Virus record (IMG/VR): IMGVR_UViG_2657245112_000002
Location: 1-5,961 of that record
Length of the DNA stretch: 5,961 nucleotides
From: a virus
Taxonomy: Duplodnaviria > Heunggongvirae > Uroviricota > Caudoviricetes
Reading direction: 5' to 3' (one strand)
Under the pieces are notes generated by a model. It had not been told where the DNA came from, did not search any database, and was given only the letters and a program-made list of their open reading frames with translations. Shown piece by piece: positions 1 to 5,961 of the stretch (position 1 is the first letter of the stretch; each line of letters begins with the position of its first letter). A program made the translations under genes and the position numbers.

Positions 1-8
1 CTCAACAA

Positions 9-156
9 TGAATTTTGTGATGCGGTGCCTGGTGCCTCCAGGTGACGTTAACCAGTTAACAATTAACGCCGGATACAGAGAATCCACCCATAACACTGTT
101 TTTGGTTTTAACTGTTCCGCGTGCGCTGAGCCGCATTCACCGCATCACAAAATTCA
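9..156. repeat. 19-bp perfect inverted repeat pair (9-27 and 138-156) flanking a 110-bp spacer with nested palindromes
   Basis: tgaattttgtgatgcggtg at 9-27 is the exact reverse complement of caccgcatcacaaaattca at 138-156. The spacer holds palindrome cctgg-tgcct-ccagg (28-42) and GTTAAC-ca-GTTAAC-aa-TTAAC (47-65). Function unknown. Confidence 0.8.
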
Positions 157-558
157 CTTTTAAAAAAGGGCGGCAGAGCAGTCACGGAGTAAAACTGATA
201 CCGCCAAATGTCACCAGAATATTGATAACAGAGGGCGTTGTAGCGGGGTTGTCACTTAAGCGTATGGTCAACCTGACAACCCGGTGTCCTCAACTGGGGA
301 AGGAATAACCCCGCCATACTTACCGCCGCGCCATTTCGCGGAGTGCCACAACCGGAAGCGCACGTTCGAAGAAATCTAACGACAAGCCTTCTAAGGGAAA
401 GAGCTTCGCCGTACGCTTTCGCGTTATGCCCTGACTTTTCAGGGAAATATCCTTTCAGTAAACTGTCAGTACCGGATTCTTATCCGTGTCCGGCGCACGA
501 CCACACGTGACAGCGTGTTGGTCTCCATTTTTAACCCAGAACCTCAATGGAGGATAAA

Positions 559-768
559 ATGCCAAACAAAAAAAGAAATCCGCTTATTGAAAAACAGATT
601 GAATGCCTGGTAAATCAACTCAGGCAATCAGGGTTATTAAAAACTCATTCAGAGTTGAGGCTCACAGAATCAGCATTCGACGATAAATTAAATAATGTCC
701 TTTATAATGGCATTATTGATTTTAATCGTTCTGTTGGTCGCCGCGGCCCTGCTGGTGTTTCCTTATAA
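559..768 (+). CDS. hypothetical small protein, 69 aa (73 aa if the ATG at 547 is used)
   Basis: ORF-track frame 547..768. GGAGGA at 549-554 lies 4 nt upstream of ATG 559; stop TAA 766-768. AT-rich like the neighbouring 216-aa gene. No motif recognised by eye. Confidence 0.4.
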   Translation: MPNKKRNPLIEKQIECLVNQLRQSGLLKTHSELRLTESAFDDKLNNVLYNGIIDFNRSVGRRGPAGVSL

Positions 769-1419
769 TTACCAGTCAATCCAGAGTGGACCGTGTTCAG
801 CGTAAATATAACTGTACACATCCAGATTATATTTGTGGTCTGTTAAGAACAGGCCGCAAATACATGCCGAAGCTTCCAGTGCAGCGGCTCTGTTACTGAA
901 TAACCATGTAGCAACATTCCAGCGTTTTTCTGCATCCCAGTCTTTCTCAAGGCCTGATACCATGAAGAAACCGTTAGTGTTGCCATCAAATAATTCTGTT
1001 TCCAAATTTTTAAGCAATGCCTGATGGACTCTTGCCAGGTATTCCGCCGGAATTTCGCCACGAATTCTGATGAGATTGTCATAAACAAACATGTTCCCCG
1101 CATATGGCGATTTTTCTTTCTTGTTTTTTAAACCAGCATCATGAGCAAACTGATCAATTTCTTCTTCCGTTGGTTTCGTATTGATGTTTTGCGCTGTCGT
1201 TTCTGCAATTTTATTTGCCACACTCTCTGAGTCGTGTTTATTTATAGACGCACAGAAATACAATCCGGTAAACGCATCGCGCACATTACGAGCCATATTA
1301 TCAGTGTCTTTTTTCGTTACCGATTCCAATTCAAGTTCGTTCAGACGATGACGAAGTGTGTGTGCTGCAATCTCCTGGATTGAAGGAGGTAAATCTTTAA
1401 ATTCCATCGTCAACCTCAT
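769..1419 (-). CDS. hypothetical protein, 216 aa (212 aa from ATG 1407); unknown function, candidate prophage cargo/defence protein
   Basis: Longest ORF on the minus strand here. ATG 1419..1417 overlaps the TAA of the upstream small gene (TAATG); alternative ATG 1407..1405 is preceded by GAGG with a 6-nt spacer. Sampled stretches are about 35-40% GC versus about 60% in a sampled stretch of the DnaC-like gene. Hydrophilic; no catalytic motif recognised by eye. Confidence 0.75.
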   Translation of the reverse strand: MRLTMEFKDLPPSIQEIAAHTLRHRLNELELESVTKKDTDNMARNVRDAFTGLYFCASINKHDSESVANKIAETTAQNINTKPTEEEIDQFAHDAGLKNKKEKSPYAGNMFVYDNLIRIRGEIPAEYLARVHQALLKNLETELFDGNTNGFFMVSGLEKDWDAEKRWNVATWLFSNRAAALEASACICGLFLTDHKYNLDVYSYIYAEHGPLWIDW

Positions 1420-1571
1420 TAGTCGGAGTTTCTTGCTAACCAGCGATGCGCGCCAGCTTCGGTTTTAAACGATTTGCTTTTGGTATACGTCATGGCGGTG
1501 AATGTGCCGTCCTGATTGGGAAACACGCCACATACCAGAGATTCGTTGTTGCCAAGATCGATAGTATCCAT
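1419..1571 (-). CDS. small prophage protein, 50 aa, YdaF/DUF1391-like (family assignment from memory)
   Basis: Below the ORF-track size cutoff; found by manual translation: MDTIDLGNNESLVCGVFPNQDGTFTAMTYTKSKSFKTEAGAHRWLARNSD. ATG 1571..1569 is preceded by GAGG with a 5-nt spacer; stop TAA 1421..1419. Resembles the ~51-aa small proteins found near the repressor in E. coli Rac-like prophages. Confidence 0.55.
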   Translation of the reverse strand: MDTIDLGNNESLVCGVFPNQDGTFTAMTYTKSKSFKTEAGAHRWLARNSD

Positions 1572-1756
1572 GTTGACCTCATTTACCCTTAACGCCGGGT
1601 CGCGGAACTAAAAACCTGCTGCGCTGTTATACAAAGTGTTCCCGCCGTCATGTTCATACGCCTCGGGCTGGCTACTTAACCCCTGACCACTGCCGGGTAA
1701 CTCGAAGTATTGCCCTGCGTTCTGTTGAATGGGGTGGGTTGGTGAAACAAGGATGC

Positions 1757-1794
1757 ACTTTTAAAGTTATTATGTCAACACTTATAAAGTTAGG
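1757..1794. promoter_or_regulatory. putative left operator/promoter: two operator-like palindromes flanking a perfect TTGACA on the minus strand
   Basis: ACTTTtAAAGT at 1758-1768 is identical to the 11-mer at 2822-2832 in the repressor/cro intergenic region. A one-mismatch copy ACTTAtAAAGT lies at 1782-1792. Minus-strand TTGACA at 1778..1773 sits between them; the matching -10 is weak (CATCCT). Confidence 0.4.
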
Positions 1795-1802
1795 TTGTGA
1801 GC

Positions 1803-1829
1803 AACAAAAACCGCCTCGAGATGAGACGG
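1803..1829 (-). terminator. intrinsic terminator downstream of the ParE-like toxin gene
   Basis: Minus-strand RNA CCGUCUC-AUCUC-GAGGCGG forms a 7-bp stem (one G-U pair) with a 5-nt loop, followed by UUUUUGUUG. The hairpin begins 13 nt after the toxin stop codon. Confidence 0.5.
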
Positions 1830-1842
1830 CCCTGTGAAAGGG

Positions 1843-2130
1843 TTAGTTCTGCTTGGGGAATTGGCGTCTGGCGTGTACTACACTCACGATCTCAATGCTT
1901 AAAGTGGCTACACGGTAAAGAATTATATAGTTAGGGTGAGCTACAATCTCACGCAAGCCAGGTACTCTGTCGCTTGGTGGGTATAAATACGGGTGTTCGG
2001 ATAACGGCAGCACACACCCCCTTAATCGCTGCCATAAGCGTTCTGCCGCATCTATGTCGAAACGAGCAATATAACTAGTTATATCATCTAGGTCGGTATC
2101 TGCGCTTTCAAGCCATAACACGGGTAACAT
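1843..2130 (-). CDS. parE2: ParE/RelE-superfamily type II toxin, 95 aa (ParE2-like)
   Basis: Sequence pattern typical of ParE toxins (…DLDDITSYIA…LREIVAHPNYIILYRV…IEIVSVVHARR). Start ATG 2130 lies 3 nt after the antitoxin stop, with GGAG inside the antitoxin 3' end. Symbol assigned from locus architecture, not exact sequence recall. Confidence 0.85.
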   Translation of the reverse strand: MLPVLWLESADTDLDDITSYIARFDIDAAERLWQRLRGCVLPLSEHPYLYPPSDRVPGLREIVAHPNYIILYRVATLSIEIVSVVHARRQFPKQN

Positions 2131-2133
2131 TTA

Positions 2134-2322
2134 CTACTTACTCCGTTCCTTGCGCATTTTAGCAAAGCGTTCTGCCATTCTGCGCTCAACCTCGTCATGG
2201 GGAATTGCTGGGCGCGGATTTGCAAGGCTCGCTGCTACTTTCGCACGCAGCCATTCGTTGTAACTGTTTTCTTGTTCAATGGTTTCGAACTCAGAAACCA
2301 TTGGTGAAAGGGCCGTATTCAT
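2134..2322 (-). CDS. paaA2: small antitoxin, 62 aa (PaaA2-like partner of ParE)
   Basis: The ORF track extends this frame to 2385, overlapping the repressor. The internal ATG at 2322..2320 is preferred: GGAGG lies 7 nt upstream and the repressor stop is at 2352-2354. Small, charged, immediately upstream of the toxin. Confidence 0.7.
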   Translation of the reverse strand: MNTALSPMVSEFETIEQENSYNEWLRAKVAASLANPRPAIPHDEVERRMAERFAKMRKERSK

Positions 2323-2351
2323 GGCACACCTCCGTCTGTGTATGGTGGTCA

Positions 2352-2759
2352 TTATGCTCGATGCCCTTTCCGGGCAGCGAGCCATCTTTCAATTGTGCGC
2401 TCCATTAACTCTTTTTTGTCTTTCATCTCCTGAAGCATTTGTCCCTGTTCTTCCTCTGGGAATGCACCAAATGTCTGAAGTAGCTCTCTTTGCTTCGGAC
2501 CTATTTTCATTGTGTCAGGTACCACAATCTGTTCGTCCTCACTTGGTGGCAACATAAACCAATATGGAGGGAATCCTGTTACTTCAGAAAGTTTATCAAG
2601 ATTAGCCATTGATGGGCTTGTGATGCCATGAACCCACTTTTGGACCGATTGTTGGGCAACACCTATTCTGCGGGCTAGTTCTGCTTGCTTAAGCCCTGTT
2701 TTTTCCAGCACCAGTTTTATCCGGTACGTGGTTATTTCAAGAGTGGTCATTCGCTTCAT
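2352..2759 (-). CDS. paaR2: XRE-family HTH transcriptional repressor, 135 aa (CI-like prophage repressor and TA regulator, PaaR2-like); no S24 peptidase domain
   Basis: N-terminal HTH signature (…LKQAELARRIGVAQQSVQKWVHGITSPSMANLDKLSEVTG…). The ~60-aa helical C-terminal tail is too short for a LexA-type autocleavage domain. Divergent from the Cro-like gene, first gene of the repressor-antitoxin-toxin operon. Confidence 0.8.
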   Translation of the reverse strand: MKRMTTLEITTYRIKLVLEKTGLKQAELARRIGVAQQSVQKWVHGITSPSMANLDKLSEVTGFPPYWFMLPPSEDEQIVVPDTMKIGPKQRELLQTFGAFPEEEQGQMLQEMKDKKELMERTIERWLAARKGHRA

Positions 2760-2866
2760 GCATTCATTTTACACAAAAAAAGTGTAGCCAGCACAATCAG
2801 CTTGAAAGTGTTGATAGTGTAACTTTTAAAGTGTATAAGTGGTGTCGATTGATTGGAGTTAGCGAT
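2760..2866. promoter_or_regulatory. divergent promoter/operator region between repressor and Cro-like gene (right operator equivalent)
   Basis: Rightward promoter candidate TTGATA (2811-2816), 17-nt spacer, TATAAG (2834-2839), then GGAG 2855-2858 and ATG 2867. Palindrome ACTTTtAAAGT (2822-2832) lies in the spacer; AAGTG-type half-sites recur at 2806-2810, 2829-2833 and 2838-2842. Leftward candidate: -10 TAAAAT (minus, plus coordinates 2771..2766) only 6 nt before the repressor ATG. Confidence 0.5.
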
Positions 2867-3145
2867 ATGCATAAATGTTTAAAAAATAAAATTCGCCAAA
2901 TAGGGTTATCCCAAGCGGGTGTTGCTCGCTTGATTGGGTTGCCACAGCAGGTTGTATGTCGATGGGTTAATGGGCAACAGGTCCCTGCATCAAGGGTTTT
3001 ACAACTATGTGAGATTATGGCGTGGACTGTCACCCCCCACGAGCTCCGACCAGATATTTACCCTAACCCAACCGATGGCCTGCCTTGTGGACGTAAGAGT
3101 ACAGCGAATGAATTACTGGCGGTGAACAATGAAAATCACACCTGA
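2867..3145 (+). CDS. ydaS: Cro/YdaS-like HTH DNA-binding protein, 92 aa
   Basis: ORF-track frame 2831..3145 starts at GTG. ATG 2867 is preferred because GGAG at 2855-2858 precedes it. HTH signature (…IGLSQAGVARLIGLPQQVVCRWVNGQQVPASR…). Divergent from the repressor. Symbol by position and family, not exact recall. Confidence 0.7.
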   Translation: MHKCLKNKIRQIGLSQAGVARLIGLPQQVVCRWVNGQQVPASRVLQLCEIMAWTVTPHELRPDIYPNPTDGLPCGRKSTANELLAVNNENHT

Positions 3146-3650
3146 ACAGGTTTGCGAGGCTCTGGATGCCTGGGTATGCAGACCAGGAATGACGCAGGAG
3201 CAGGCGACGATATTAATTACTGAAGCCTTCTGGGCTCTACAGGAACGCCCGAACATCGATGTTCAGCGTGTCACGCTTGATGATGGCGGGGTTGATCAGC
3301 GTGCGCTTGGCGTTAACCGGGTGAAGATATTCGAACGCTGGAAGGCTATCGACACCAGGGATAAGCGTGAAAAATTCACGGCGCTGATTCCGGCAATTAT
3401 GGAGGCTATCCGGATTAGTGATTTCAGGTTGTACCGCGAAATTACTGACGGAAAAAGCATTACGTACATGATTGCCGGGTTAAACAAAGAATATGGCGAT
3501 GTGGTGGAGTCCGGGCTGCTTTTTGCAGATCCAGCTGTTGTGGAACGTGAGACAGACGAGCTTATAGAAAAAGCAATCGCTTTCAAGCGTGCCTATCGTC
3601 ACCAGTACCAACAAAAAGCCGGATGGAATTATGAGCCTTCTTTTTGCTGA
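3129..3650 (+). CDS. ydaT: YdaT-like protein, 173 aa (proposed CII functional analogue)
   Basis: Overlaps the Cro-like gene 3' end by 17 nt. Occupies the cII position between the Cro-like and O-like genes, as in Rac/CP-933P-type prophages. Assignment is by position and size, not exact sequence recall. Confidence 0.6.
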   Translation: MKITPEQVCEALDAWVCRPGMTQEQATILITEAFWALQERPNIDVQRVTLDDGGVDQRALGVNRVKIFERWKAIDTRDKREKFTALIPAIMEAIRISDFRLYREITDGKSITYMIAGLNKEYGDVVESGLLFADPAVVERETDELIEKAIAFKRAYRHQYQQKAGWNYEPSFC

Positions 3651-4608
3651 ACGCCCGCTGGTTATAAACACACAGCTGGCGATGAAGATTGGTTTAAACG
3701 AAGCCATTGTGTTGCAGCAACTGCATTACTGGTTGAGGGATACCAGTTCCGGCATGGAATGTGATGGCGTTCGCTGGATTTACAACACAACGGAACAATG
3801 GCTGGAACAGTTTCCGTTCTGGTCAGAGTCAACGTTAAAGCGTGCGTTTGCAAGTCTGAAAGCGCTGGGGCTTTTGCGTAGCGAAAAGCTCAATAAATCG
3901 AAGCGTGATATGACTAATTTTTACACAATTAACTACGATAGCGCGCTTTTAGATGATGGCAAAGTGAACGAATCCATCGGGTCAAAATGCGCCACTCCAT
4001 CAGGTCAAAATGACACGATGGAAGAGGTCAAAATGAAACGTTCCATTGGTTCAAAACGGCCCAATGTCATCAGGTCAAAATGGCCCGATGATCCTACAGA
4101 GAATACAACAGAGAATACAACAGAGAATACAACAGAGAATAAAAAACTCTCTTGTCCGGACGCTTCGCAACCGGACGAGTTGACGGCTGAACAGGCGTTT
4201 TTAACCCGCCATCCTGATGCTGTTGTGTTCAGCGTGAAAAAACGCCAGTGGGGAACCCGGGAGGATTTGACATGTGCGCAGTGGATCTGGGGGCGGGTTG
4301 TAAACCTGTACGAACAGGCTGCCAGCGACGATGGAGAGATCACGCGACCGAAAGAGCCCAACTGGACGGCGTGGGCCAATGACGTGCGCACAATGCGGAT
4401 GCTGGATGGAAGAAGTCACAGACAAATTTGCGAAATGTTCAGCCGGGCACAACGGGATCCGTTCTGGATAAAAAACATCAAGAGCCCGGAAAAACTCCGT
4501 GAGAAATGGGATGAACTGGTTATTCGACTGTGGCGTGGTCCCGCGCAGCGTTGCGTGAATCATATTTCTGAACCGGATACCGAAATTCCGCCGGGTTTCA
4601 GGGGGTAG
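3631..4608 (+). CDS. replication initiator, lambda O-like architecture, 325 aa from ATG 3631 (339 aa from GTG 3589)
   Basis: Lies immediately upstream of the DnaC-like loader. Contains tandem DNA repeats in its central linker (…TENTTENTTENTTEN…), as oriLambda lies inside gene O. Start ATG 3631 overlaps the YdaT-like gene end by 20 nt. Stop TAG 4606-4608. Confidence 0.8.
   Translation: MSLLFAERPLVINTQLAMKIGLNEAIVLQQLHYWLRDTSSGMECDGVRWIYNTTEQWLEQFPFWSESTLKRAFASLKALGLLRSEKLNKSKRDMTNFYTINYDSALLDDGKVNESIGSKCATPSGQNDTMEEVKMKRSIGSKRPNVIRSKWPDDPTENTTENTTENTTENKKLSCPDASQPDELTAEQAFLTRHPDAVVFSVKKRQWGTREDLTCAQWIWGRVVNLYEQAASDDGEITRPKEPNWTAWANDVRTMRMLDGRSHRQICEMFSRAQRDPFWIKNIKSPEKLREKWDELVIRLWRGPAQRCVNHISEPDTEIPPGFRG
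3978..4093. repeat. five direct iterons, 23-24 bp period, core GGTCAAAATG (putative origin initiator-binding sites)
   Basis: Core at 3980-3989, 4003-4012, 4026-4035 and 4073-4082, with degenerate copy GGTTCAAAACG at 4048-4058. Units also share CCAT/TCAT at their 3' ends. Confidence 0.6.
4096..4143. repeat. four tandem 12-bp repeats ACAGAGAATACA (three perfect, fourth ACAGAGAATAAA), A-rich; putative unwinding element
   Basis: Directly visible perfect tandem repeat. It encodes the TENT repeats of the O-like protein and is followed by aaaaaa. Confidence 0.9.
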
Positions 4609-4614
4609 CGCATC

Positions 4615-5355
4615 ATGAAAAACATTACGTCAGGTGGTGTTCTGGCAAGAGTCAGCAGATTTGTGCCGCAGGATGCAATCCCTCCGTACCGTACGGTGAC
4701 GGAGTGGCGGGAATGGCAGCTTGCTGAAGGGCGTAAGCGAAGCGAGGAGGTTAATCGTCTGAATCATCAGACGCGGGTTGAAAAAATCATTAACCGCTCC
4801 GGTATCCAGCCGCTTCACCGGAAGTGTACGTTCGGTAACTACCGGGTGCAGAACGATGGTCAGCGCCATGCCCTGAGTCAGGCGAAATCCATTGCGGCAG
4901 AGCTGGAAGGCGGCTGTACGAATTTTGTGTTCAGTGGCCGGCCTGGCACAGGAAAAAACCACCTGGCGGCGGCTATTGGCAACCACCTTCTGGCGAAAGG
5001 TCGCAGTGTGATTGTGATAACAGTGGCGGATGTGATGCTGGCGTTACATGGCAGCTACGACAACAAAAACTCGGGCGAAAAATTTTTGCAGGGATTGTGT
5101 GGCGTTGACCTGCTGGTACTGGATGAAATTGGCATGCAACGGGATACGCGTAATGAGCAGGTCACGCTGAATCAGATTGTTGACCGCAGAACGGCATCGT
5201 TACTCAGTGTGGGGATGCTGACAAATCTTAACCATGCAGCGATGAATACACTTCTCGGCGAGCGGGTGATGGACCGCATGTCCATGAACGGTGGTCGCTG
5301 GGTGACGTTTAACTGGGAGAGCTGGCGTCCGAACGTCAGCCAGCACAGGAACTGA
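4615..5355 (+). CDS. DnaC-like replicative helicase loader (AAA+ ATPase), 246 aa
   Basis: Walker [18 protein letters not shown] and Walker B LLVLDEIG. Collinear similarity to E. coli DnaC as recalled (…NRSGI.PLH..C.F.NYRV…GMLTN.N…[10 protein letters not shown]…). GGGGG at 4601-4605 precedes ATG 4615 and overlaps the O-like stop. Confidence 0.9.
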
Positions 5356-5384
5356 GAAGTAATTTTTATCCGGAGGAAGTTTTA

Positions 5385-5961
5385 ATGGAAACCGTATTGC
5401 ATGCACTGAAAGCGATGGGTAAAGCCAATTCTGTTGAACTGGCGGCGCGGCTTGATATCAGCCGTGAAGAAGTTCTCAACGAACTGTGGGAACTCAAAAA
5501 AAATGGCGTTGTTGATAAAACGGGTCACACCTGGTTTCTGGCTGGTGAAGGTGAATCCGGGGTAACCGAAGAGCAGCCAGCACAGTCTGAAGTACCGGAT
5601 GTGCTGACCGGGGAGGTCGAACAAAAAGTTACCGCGGACATGATGATTGAGTTTATCTGTCAGGATGGGGCTAAAACGTGTGAGGAACTGGCGGATAAGT
5701 TCGGTGTTAGCATTCGCAAGGTTGCTTCCACGTTGGCGGTCGTAACAGCAACGGGGCGCCTGGCACGCGTAAATCAGAACGGTAAATTTCGTTACTGCAT
5801 ACCGGGCGCTGATTTACCGGCAGAGCCGGAAGCTGCATCCGTAGCGGAAACCGATGGTAAAGCCTTTCCTCAGCCAACAGGTGTTGCGTTACCAGTCCAG
5901 GAAACGACGACACAGGAAGAAATAAAAACTGAAAGTGTGGCGGTCACAGTGCAGTCACAGC
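5385..5961 (+). CDS. hypothetical protein, partial (3' end beyond window), two tandem winged-helix-like repeats
   Basis: Not in the ORF track because it runs off the window. ATG 5385 is preceded by GGAGGA (5372-5377); no in-frame stop to 5961. Translation begins [43 protein letters not shown]…; a second similar segment reads [42 protein letters not shown]. Confidence 0.6.

Follow-up and report, generated by a model that had tools for sequence, protein, structure and literature searches.

The dicBF operon of the cryptic prophage Qin in Escherichia coli K-12 (ydfABC-dicF-dicB-ydfD) is repressed by DicA and carries two inhibitors of cell division, the small RNA DicF and DicB, which have published effects on metabolism and phage resistance. 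In K-12, DicF arises solely when RNases III and E process a polycistronic transcript that starts upstream of ydfA, RNase III cutting a 190-nucleotide (nt) precursor from the spacer region (PMC10448788). It is made only from the polycistronic transcript of the promoter dicBp (PMC5069750), which most cells keep silent under standard conditions (PMC10448788). We analysed 5,961 nt of a virus of the Caudoviricetes (IMG/VR record IMGVR_UViG_2657245112_000002, positions 1 to 5,961; hereafter the window), which belong to a lambdoid E. coli prophage and represent its immunity and early-left region. The minus strand of the window is a dicBF-type operon. Directly upstream of its DicF and dicB genes lies a cassette in which the plus strand encodes a protein of 69 amino acids (aa; 559..768), whose gene ends back to back with that of a 212-aa protein of the operon (1407..769). 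Our main reading, to which we give a probability of about 0.55, is that the 69-aa gene is a real antisense accessory gene in the early-left dicBF-type operon, placed at a conserved exchange point (480-561), and that the two strands are expressed in opposition.

The window resembles the Qin operon in its organisation: a repressor gene, ydfA as the first gene of the operon, DicF within a long untranslated region, dicB and ydfD. The DicF-proximal spacers of the two are homologous. Qin differs by having ydfB and ydfC in place of the 212-aa gene, and it has neither the joint of Shine-Dalgarno sequence (SD) and ATG from which the 69-aa gene starts nor an annotated antisense gene at that place. Conversely, the window has a PaaA2/ParE pair between the repressor and the operator, which Qin lacks.

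Other described systems offer partial parallels. The morons of lambdoid phages are self-contained accessory genes, each with a promoter and a terminator of its own, and are often expressed from the prophage, e.g., bor and lom of lambda. The cassette is moron-like in its presence or absence and interchange among prophages, in its lower G+C content and in the stem-loop found downstream; expression of the slot in a lysogen, also expected of morons, is indicated by the positional analogue ECs1762 alone. Unlike morons, the 69-aa gene is antisense inside an operon and abuts its neighbour, with its 3' hairpin in the coding sequence of the latter. Its leader and ribosome-binding joint are common to at least eight alternative genes, and we found no clear promoter for it. 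Convergent antisense pairs cut by RNase III are exemplified by the lambda oop RNA and cII, and by the type I toxin-antitoxin loci txpA/RatA, bsrG/SR4 and par of pAD1. As in these pairs, the transcripts of the cassette would be prophage-borne, convergent and overlapping at their 3' ends, and duplex formation and cleavage are expected. In contrast to them, both RNAs are protein-coding and the long partner spans the short one fully; the small hydrophobic toxin with a ribosome-binding site and the bidirectional terminator of the type I pairs are also absent. Finally, the immunity genes of pore-forming colicins are read against the direction of the SOS-induced operon that contains them. The 69-aa gene is likewise a small opposite-strand gene of an inducible operon, a placement that permits constant expression during the operon's silence, but it has no homology to these genes, its product has no membrane segments, and the pairing with its neighbour is not obligate.

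ECs1762, in prophage Sp9 of the O157:H7 strain Sakai, has the same position and orientation as the 69-aa gene. It encodes 77 aa from a GGAGG site, lies between a gene with the N-terminal domain of the 212-aa protein (MEFKDL family) and dicB, and is convergent to the former with an overlap of 23 nt. Its product is basic (isoelectric point, pI, of 9.5, against 9.7 for the 69-aa protein), whereas the joint sequence upstream differs. A published study reports that mass spectrometry recovered the ECs1762 protein from uninduced Sakai cultures and that it was enriched by ultraviolet crosslinking to RNA (TRAPP), RNA binding being confirmed by a PNK assay (PMC7618764). Its detection in uninduced cells means that the slot can be expressed in a lysogen. 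That the 69-aa protein might also bind RNA is a possibility raised solely by analogy with ECs1762.

Coding status of the 69-aa gene

A preliminary description of the locus had considered that the 69-aa open reading frame (ORF) might be non-coding. Two types of evidence refute this. The ratio of nonsynonymous to synonymous substitution rates (dN/dS) indicates purifying selection exclusively in the annotated frame: it is 0.19-0.27 in this frame and 0.9-2.4 in the other two plus-strand frames when the window is compared with a diverged E. coli clade (91% identity), and 0.24 and 2.4-2.5, respectively, when it is compared with Salmonella. The excess of synonymous changes has P = 4e-4 against Salmonella and P = 5e-3 against the 91% clade. 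In addition, at least eight unrelated sequence types carry ORFs of 57-101 codons opened by the same ATG of the same SD-ATG joint; by our own estimate from base composition, 57 codons would be free of stops by chance with a probability of about 0.02 per type. We conclude from these sequence comparisons that the 69-aa ORF is a genuine small protein-coding gene. It is already listed as a protein family by PGAP (WP_001133037.1) and PHROGs (phrog_4274, match at 1.2e-51). The frame is open over 547..768 (73 aa), and the start annotated by PGAP is the ATG at 559 (69 aa), preceded at 5 nt by the SD GGAGG (549..553, plus strand), which is part of the conserved joint TGGAGGATAAAATG.

The 69-aa protein is 77% identical in Salmonella and has two predicted helices (AF2 model with a mean pLDDT of 57). 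Neither it nor the 212-aa protein had a match in Pfam, NCBIfam or PADLOC, i.e., no known toxin, antitoxin or defence family of these databases was matched by either protein, and in PHROGs both belong to families of 'unknown function'. The fold search was uninformative, and the structure models are of moderate or low confidence.

Codons 4-6 of the gene contain a run of seven A (568..574), where the loss of one base truncates the ORF to 17 codons. This A6 frameshift was present in seven of the 60 IMG/VR loci with the same type of small gene (type A), five of which have an intact 212-aa gene. The A6 alleles are either a real polymorphism or homopolymer sequencing errors in draft genomes. A hydrophobic ORF of 36 codons (MSFIMALLILIVLLVAAALLVFPYNYQSIQSGPCSA, positions 695-805, plus-strand frame +2) overlaps the end of the 69-aa ORF and spans the junction of the two stops, and no stop interrupts it in either Salmonella or the diverged E. 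coli clade. We rejected it as a hidden type I toxin, because it has no ribosome-binding site and a dN/dS of 0.9-2.4 in that frame. Judging from codon usage, it is probably a by-product whose hydrophobicity comes from the NNT and NNC codons of the main frame.

The convergent junction and the downstream hairpin

The preliminary description reported that the two stops abut without any intergenic base, and that no terminator separates the genes. Both points were confirmed. In the sequence TAATTA (766..771, read on both strands), the TAA at 766-768 ends the plus-strand ORF and the TAA at 771..769 ends the minus-strand one. The gap is exactly 0 in all 48 IMG/VR loci in which both genes are intact (counted as loci with the 69-aa ORF and a partner of 210-212 aa) and in copies from E. 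coli genomes at 84-91% identity, and TAATTA is retained in the Salmonella copy, at around 80% nucleotide identity. A motif scan gave no terminator-like site at or near the junction, and the 141 nt around it fold like shuffled sequences (z of +0.45 on the plus strand and -1.10 on the minus strand), which led us to reject a bidirectional terminator. The further claim that there is no hairpin holds between the stops but not beyond them: a conserved stem lies at 830-862, 62 nt past the plus-strand stop and within the convergent gene.

This element (830..862, plus strand) is an inverted repeat in the coding region of the 212-aa protein, with a stem of 15 base pairs, a loop of 3 nt and no U-tract. 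Its predicted energy is -19.0 kcal/mol on the plus strand against -12.5 kcal/mol for the reverse complement, and was matched by none of 100 shuffles. Across the nine distinct type-A sequences, 97.6% of the cells of the alignment pair on the plus strand, against 78.6% on the minus strand, and all five pairs that vary within E. coli alternate between Watson-Crick and G-U on the plus strand. The bias recurs in the sister cassettes: the best hairpin within 150 nt of the plus-strand stop was stronger on the plus strand in all nine representatives tested, and in seven of them was matched by at most three of 100 shuffles. In types E and F the hairpin is followed by a U-tract, as in true terminators. 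These comparisons suggest that the stem at 830-862 is probably an element that forms or stabilises the 3' end of the plus-strand mRNA. With its 3' end there, the overlap of this mRNA with the 212-aa gene would be around 95 nt and therefore not unlimited.

The operon and the transcripts of the two strands

The minus strand carries, in order, an operator/promoter region (around 1750-1790), ydfA, the 212-aa gene, around 550 nt without translation, DicF and dicB. The last gene, followed by ydfD (a DUF1482 gene), lies just past the left edge of the window, as seen in the closest genome copy. The ydfA-like gene (DUF1391; 1571..1419, minus strand; Pfam PF07151, 100.9 bits) is promoter-proximal; the 'ydfA' of the IbfA paper was discarded as an unrelated plasmid gene. 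DicF (219..168, minus strand) matches Rfam RF00039 over its full length with 77 bits, against a gathering score of 48 (E-value of 2.7e-16). The untranslated spacer, or DicF precursor region (220..558, minus strand), is around 93% identical in many phages carrying DicF and can be aligned with the ydfC-dicF spacer of K-12. Together with positions 559-768, it makes up the 550 nt that are not translated on this strand.

Motif scans found no terminator and no promoter-like site on the minus strand in positions 1-2000, hence none in 769-220. DicF and dicB lie downstream, and by homology with K-12 the RNA of the operon would, whenever it is made, be antisense to both the leader and the full length of the 69-aa gene. 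The preliminary description had proposed that each transcript must read into the other gene. This stands for the minus-strand transcript, which must cross the whole 69-aa gene, but unlimited read-through in the other direction is doubtful given the stem at 830-862. Judging from the layout of the locus, the two strands are very probably transcribed in opposition.

The plus-strand gene may have its own promoter, for which there is one weak candidate, TTTTCA-17 nt-TAAACT (436..464, plus strand; 8 of 12 matches), and the promoter scan gave nothing stronger upstream of 559. The candidate came from a separate scan, the threshold of the general one being 9 of 12. Both its hexamers are invariant in eight aligned loci. 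It lies mostly within a gap between the blocks shared with the window (which end at 439 and restart at 472), where other loci have an inserted plus-strand gene with its own promoter, TGTATAAT.

Downstream of this candidate, the leader (480..557, plus strand) is structured. It contains a hairpin of 10 base pairs (499-523), and the CTCCATT at 523-529 can pair with the AATGGAG at 546-552, thereby covering the SD; this masking repeat is complementary at seven of seven positions. The predicted fold has -25.4 kcal/mol, with a z of -2.83 on the plus strand and -1.0 on the minus strand, and for all 5' ends assumed, the probability that GGAGG is unpaired stays mostly under 0.4. The stem at 499-523 has one compensatory change, from C-G to U-A, in type E loci. 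The modelled fold suggests that a masked ribosome-binding site restrains the translation of the 69-aa ORF. K-12 (L009, reverse strand) retains a hairpin in this position, just ahead of where the joint would be, but with another stem (CTCCAC/GTGGAG versus CCACACG/CGTGTTGG), and the one at 499-523 may serve the operon transcript rather than the plus-strand gene.

The exchange point

The closest genome copy of the window is a prophage at ompW in strain 07_3636 (99.9% identity; locus L001). The stretch studied is 100% identical in O157:H7 EDL933, O26:H11 11368 and other strains, and in the O157:H7 prophage Sp11 of Sakai the 69-aa and 212-aa genes are named ECs_2212 and ECs_2211, respectively. The exact cassette was found in 597 of 5,426 complete E. 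coli genomes (around 11%), with O157:H7, O26, O103 and O145 strains among the carriers.

We used the conserved leader and joint as a search pattern over IMG/VR, and recovered the joint in at least 119 loci. The sequence TGGAGGATAAAATG is identical in seven aligned loci with differing downstream ORFs, and K-12 lacks it; in these alignments, the joint is a mosaic boundary. Each type of small plus-strand ORF has a minus-strand partner of its own, to which it is joined tail-to-tail. In every type the genes meet or overlap at their stops: the gap is 0 in type A and the overlaps are of 12 nt in type D, 29 nt in type E, 44 nt in type B and 77 nt in type C. Most partners have a common N-terminal domain of around 50 residues (MEFKDLP...), the remainder being different. 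The G+C content of the cassettes is 0.33-0.44, against 0.46-0.57 in the flanks. Types B and G retain Cys/His zinc-ribbon motifs. The occupant of type H (L025) matches the GhoS family (PF11080) with 21.2 bits for a cut-off of 21, whereas the 69-aa protein of the window has no such match. Hence, we rejected a type V GhoS/GhoT system for the window.

Among related prophages, the cassette may be exchanged for another or missing. A common lineage that we call 'WIDWFKG' has a clean deletion of window positions 561-722 and an intact 211-aa protein (cluster P0099, 110 member sequences). In another locus (L134:3177-3647), a protein of 156 aa takes the place of the 69-aa ORF, and the 212-aa protein is represented by a convergently encoded homologue of 221 aa. 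The 156-aa protein has two apparent hydrophobic membrane segments and no family match. In prophage Sp14 of Sakai we found no cassette between ydfA and dicB.

Other small genes were observed on the antisense side. A coiled-coil and zinc-ribbon protein of 170-172 aa (L132/L133:3299-3934 and L136:3476-3988) has an extended -10 promoter (TGTATAAT), stands by itself or precedes the 69-aa ORF, and had no match in Pfam or PADLOC. A second antisense small gene (L003:2742-2942 and L140:9954-10154; ECs_2282 of Sakai) is annotated as 'ECs_2282 family putative zinc-binding protein'. In some prophages, a gene of this kind is found farther upstream in the operon, between the ParE toxin and ydfC, so that antisense small genes are not limited to one slot. 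As far as the compared sequences tell, an antisense slot for small genes in dicBF-type operons is apparently a recurrent and undescribed arrangement.

The 212-aa partner

The minus-strand ORF has the extent given in the preliminary description (216 aa from 1419), but its start had to be corrected to the ATG at 1407, which is kept in all homologues. The resulting 212-aa gene (1407..769, minus strand; ECs_2211, phrog_2151, 'Ybl81') is the one annotated by PGAP. Its product opens with MEFKDL. The N-domain (residues 1-55; 1243-1407, minus strand) is common to other PHROGs and to proteins of 42-286 aa. A HMMER search of 1.84 billion representative proteins gave 55 matches to the 212-aa protein, nearly all through this domain. 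The C-domain (residues 96-212 plus the stop; 769-1122, minus strand) has hardly any relatives in the same search, one of them fused to a segment that we read as an XRE-type helix-turn-helix. The AF2 model of the protein (mean pLDDT of 66.7) has a helical N-terminal part and an alpha/beta C-terminal part.

In Salmonella enterica (L129-L131) the module falls into two parts, the 69-aa ORF being flanked by an N-domain protein of 119 aa and, as a separate ORF of around 120 aa, by the C-domain. The gene for the C-domain alone, which was missed by the gene caller on the record, still abuts the 69-aa ORF. Compared with Salmonella, the C-domain has a dS of 0.56 and a dN/dS of 0.22, against 0.60 and 0.24 for the 69-aa ORF. 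The conserved leader occurs twice in tandem in these Salmonella loci.

Interpretation and alternative explanations

Under our main reading, the plus-strand mRNA would probably start in the conserved DicF-proximal region, perhaps near 471, and the 69-aa ORF would be translated from its partly masked ribosome-binding site. This mRNA would end at, or be trimmed to, the hairpin at 830-862, thus overlapping the last 95 nt or so of the 212-aa gene. In the lysogen, a CI/DicA-like repressor would keep the operon transcript off and the small protein would be made. Upon derepression, the operon RNA would reach DicF and dicB by running antisense through the small gene, which would then be silenced by colliding polymerases and by a completely paired RNA duplex, a substrate of RNase III. 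In the other direction, transcription of the plus strand, or its RNA, might damp leaky read-through of the operon toward the toxic DicF and DicB. We infer such interference from the arrangement of the genes, and the expression of the strands in opposition according to the state of the prophage is its likeliest consequence.

A number of observations weigh against this reading. The plus-strand gene has no convincing sigma-70 promoter, the best candidates in the scans having 8-9 of 12 matches and one of them lying after the start codon. The stem at 830-862 has no U-tract and is within coding sequence, and termination there is not established. Its control by shuffling of the alignment was not significant (52 of 500, nine sequences), and the case for the hairpin therefore rests on the comparison of strands and on the test across cassettes. 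In Salmonella, three of the plus-strand pairs are broken, and two of these become G-U on the minus strand. Seven of the 60 type-A loci have the ORF frameshifted and one lineage has lost it through a clean deletion, which makes the 69-aa gene dispensable, at least for the carriage of the prophage. ECs1762 has no similarity to the 69-aa protein (E-value of 7.7), and no significant hairpin was found downstream of ECs_1762. A search of the literature for the accessions of the two proteins and for ECs2211 and ECs2212 gave no mention of them.

The two proteins might instead be a cognate pair, the 69-aa protein being an antidote, an immunity factor or a specific regulator of the C-domain of its neighbour. 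The small protein would then be constantly present in the lysogen, and its partner would appear on induction or come from a related superinfecting phage. This would fit the association of each type of small ORF with its own partner C-terminus on a shared N-domain, the many alternative C-termini reminiscent of polymorphic effectors, the GhoS-like occupant of one slot (PF11080, just above the cut-off), and the Salmonella loci, where the 69-aa ORF abuts a gene for the C-domain alone and the two have the dS and dN/dS values given above. Yet, co-variation is expected from overlapping genes exchanged as one block, no toxin, antitoxin or defence family was matched and the fold search did not help. 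The 'WIDWFKG' lineage keeps its 211-aa protein after the deletion of the ORF, a membrane protein fills the slot in the 221-aa lineage, and five loci combine a frameshifted ORF with an intact 212-aa gene. We thus regard a cognate pair as unlikely. Its strict form, an obligate toxin-antitoxin or effector-immunity pair, we rejected, given the intact 211-aa and 221-aa homologues without the 69-aa ORF and the five frameshifted loci. The role of small regulator of the 212-aa protein, put forward in the preliminary description, is weakened by the lineages that keep the latter without the ORF. Slightly less likely again is that the arrangement reflects mere compaction, i.e., an independent accessory gene packed tail-to-tail in an operon so nearly always silent that the overlap has no regulatory effect. 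In favour of it, phages pack their genes densely and have their mosaic joints at gene boundaries, unrelated occupants suit a site for passive cargo and dicBp is off in most K-12 cells under standard conditions (PMC10448788). But abutment or overlap recurs in every type of cassette, and the operon, once switched on, is bound to transcribe the small gene in antisense over its full length. The hairpins inside the partner gene are biased to the plus strand in nine of nine representatives, which argues for a selected design rather than an accident.

It is very improbable that the ORF is untranslated and that the region acts as a non-coding antisense RNA or simply as the spacer of the DicF precursor. 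The SD is predicted to be largely base-paired, and Qin of K-12 makes DicF without such an ORF, as this explanation would have it. However, it leaves unexplained the purifying selection specific to one frame, the strong SD at ideal spacing, the unrelated long ORFs (at least eight) opened by the same ATG, the zinc-ribbon motifs kept in types B and G, and the detection of the positional analogue ECs1762 as a protein. A more ambitious reading, which we hold to be unlikely, makes the DicF-proximal joint a dedicated antisense slot for interchangeable small proteins, some of them RNA-binding like ECs1762, each matched to the variable C-domain of a MEFKDL protein, the whole forming two-strand modules that depend on the state of the prophage. 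If so, such modules would supply the lysogen with an antidote or a regulator and would make an effector once induced, and might control DicF and DicB or oppose superinfecting phages.

At present, the anatomy of the locus is well supported and its regulatory consequence is plausible from sequence analysis. Toxic prophage products would come under a further level of control if the small genes gate the read-through to DicF and DicB, or are RNA-binding regulators in the manner of ECs1762; the genes would also be a source of uncharacterised small proteins in pathogenic lysogens. The leader and the SD-ATG joint provide a simple sequence handle to find further genes of this kind.

Other features of the window and of related loci

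The leftward operator/promoter region (1750..1790, minus strand), equivalent to dicBp or pL, contains operator-like palindromes, repeated at 1757-1767 and 1780-1790. It also has a TTGACA without mismatch (1779..1774) and, as a weak -10 hexamer, CATCCT. The operator-like repeat ACTTTTAAAGT occurs at 1757, at 1780 (one mismatch) and at 2822, between the repressor and the cro-like genes. The putative role of these repeats and hexamers is proposed by analogy with oL and oR of lambda. The CI/DicA-like repressor (2759..2352, minus strand) was recognised by a match to HTH_3, and the divergent Cro/DicC-like gene (2867-3145) by the annotation of the matching genome locus. A PaaA2-type antitoxin and a ParE toxin (2385..1843, minus strand) occupy the place of lambda rexAB, flanked by the repressor gene and the leftward operator. 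A weak terminator-like site of the plus strand (1828-1844) lies directly past the stop of the ParE toxin.

The gathering score of Rfam for DicF was reached by only two of the 11 related loci scanned (L025 and L008). The sequence at the DicF position (alignment columns 30-90) is diverged in L003, L005 and L007; the scan gave no match in L005 and L007, and L003 was judged by the alignment alone. Between DicF and dicB (14-154, minus strand), we found a sub-threshold match to STnc100, a family of Salmonella small RNAs (37.4 bits for a gathering score of 47). Rfam models also matched IsrK and the C4 antisense RNA beside antirepressor-like genes in L130, L134 and L025. Finally, a gene resembling a replication initiator (3631-4608) contains at 4092-4140 four tandem units of 12 nt (ACAGAGAATACA, identified by eye), which encode TENT repeats and resemble the origin iterons in the O gene of lambdoid phages.

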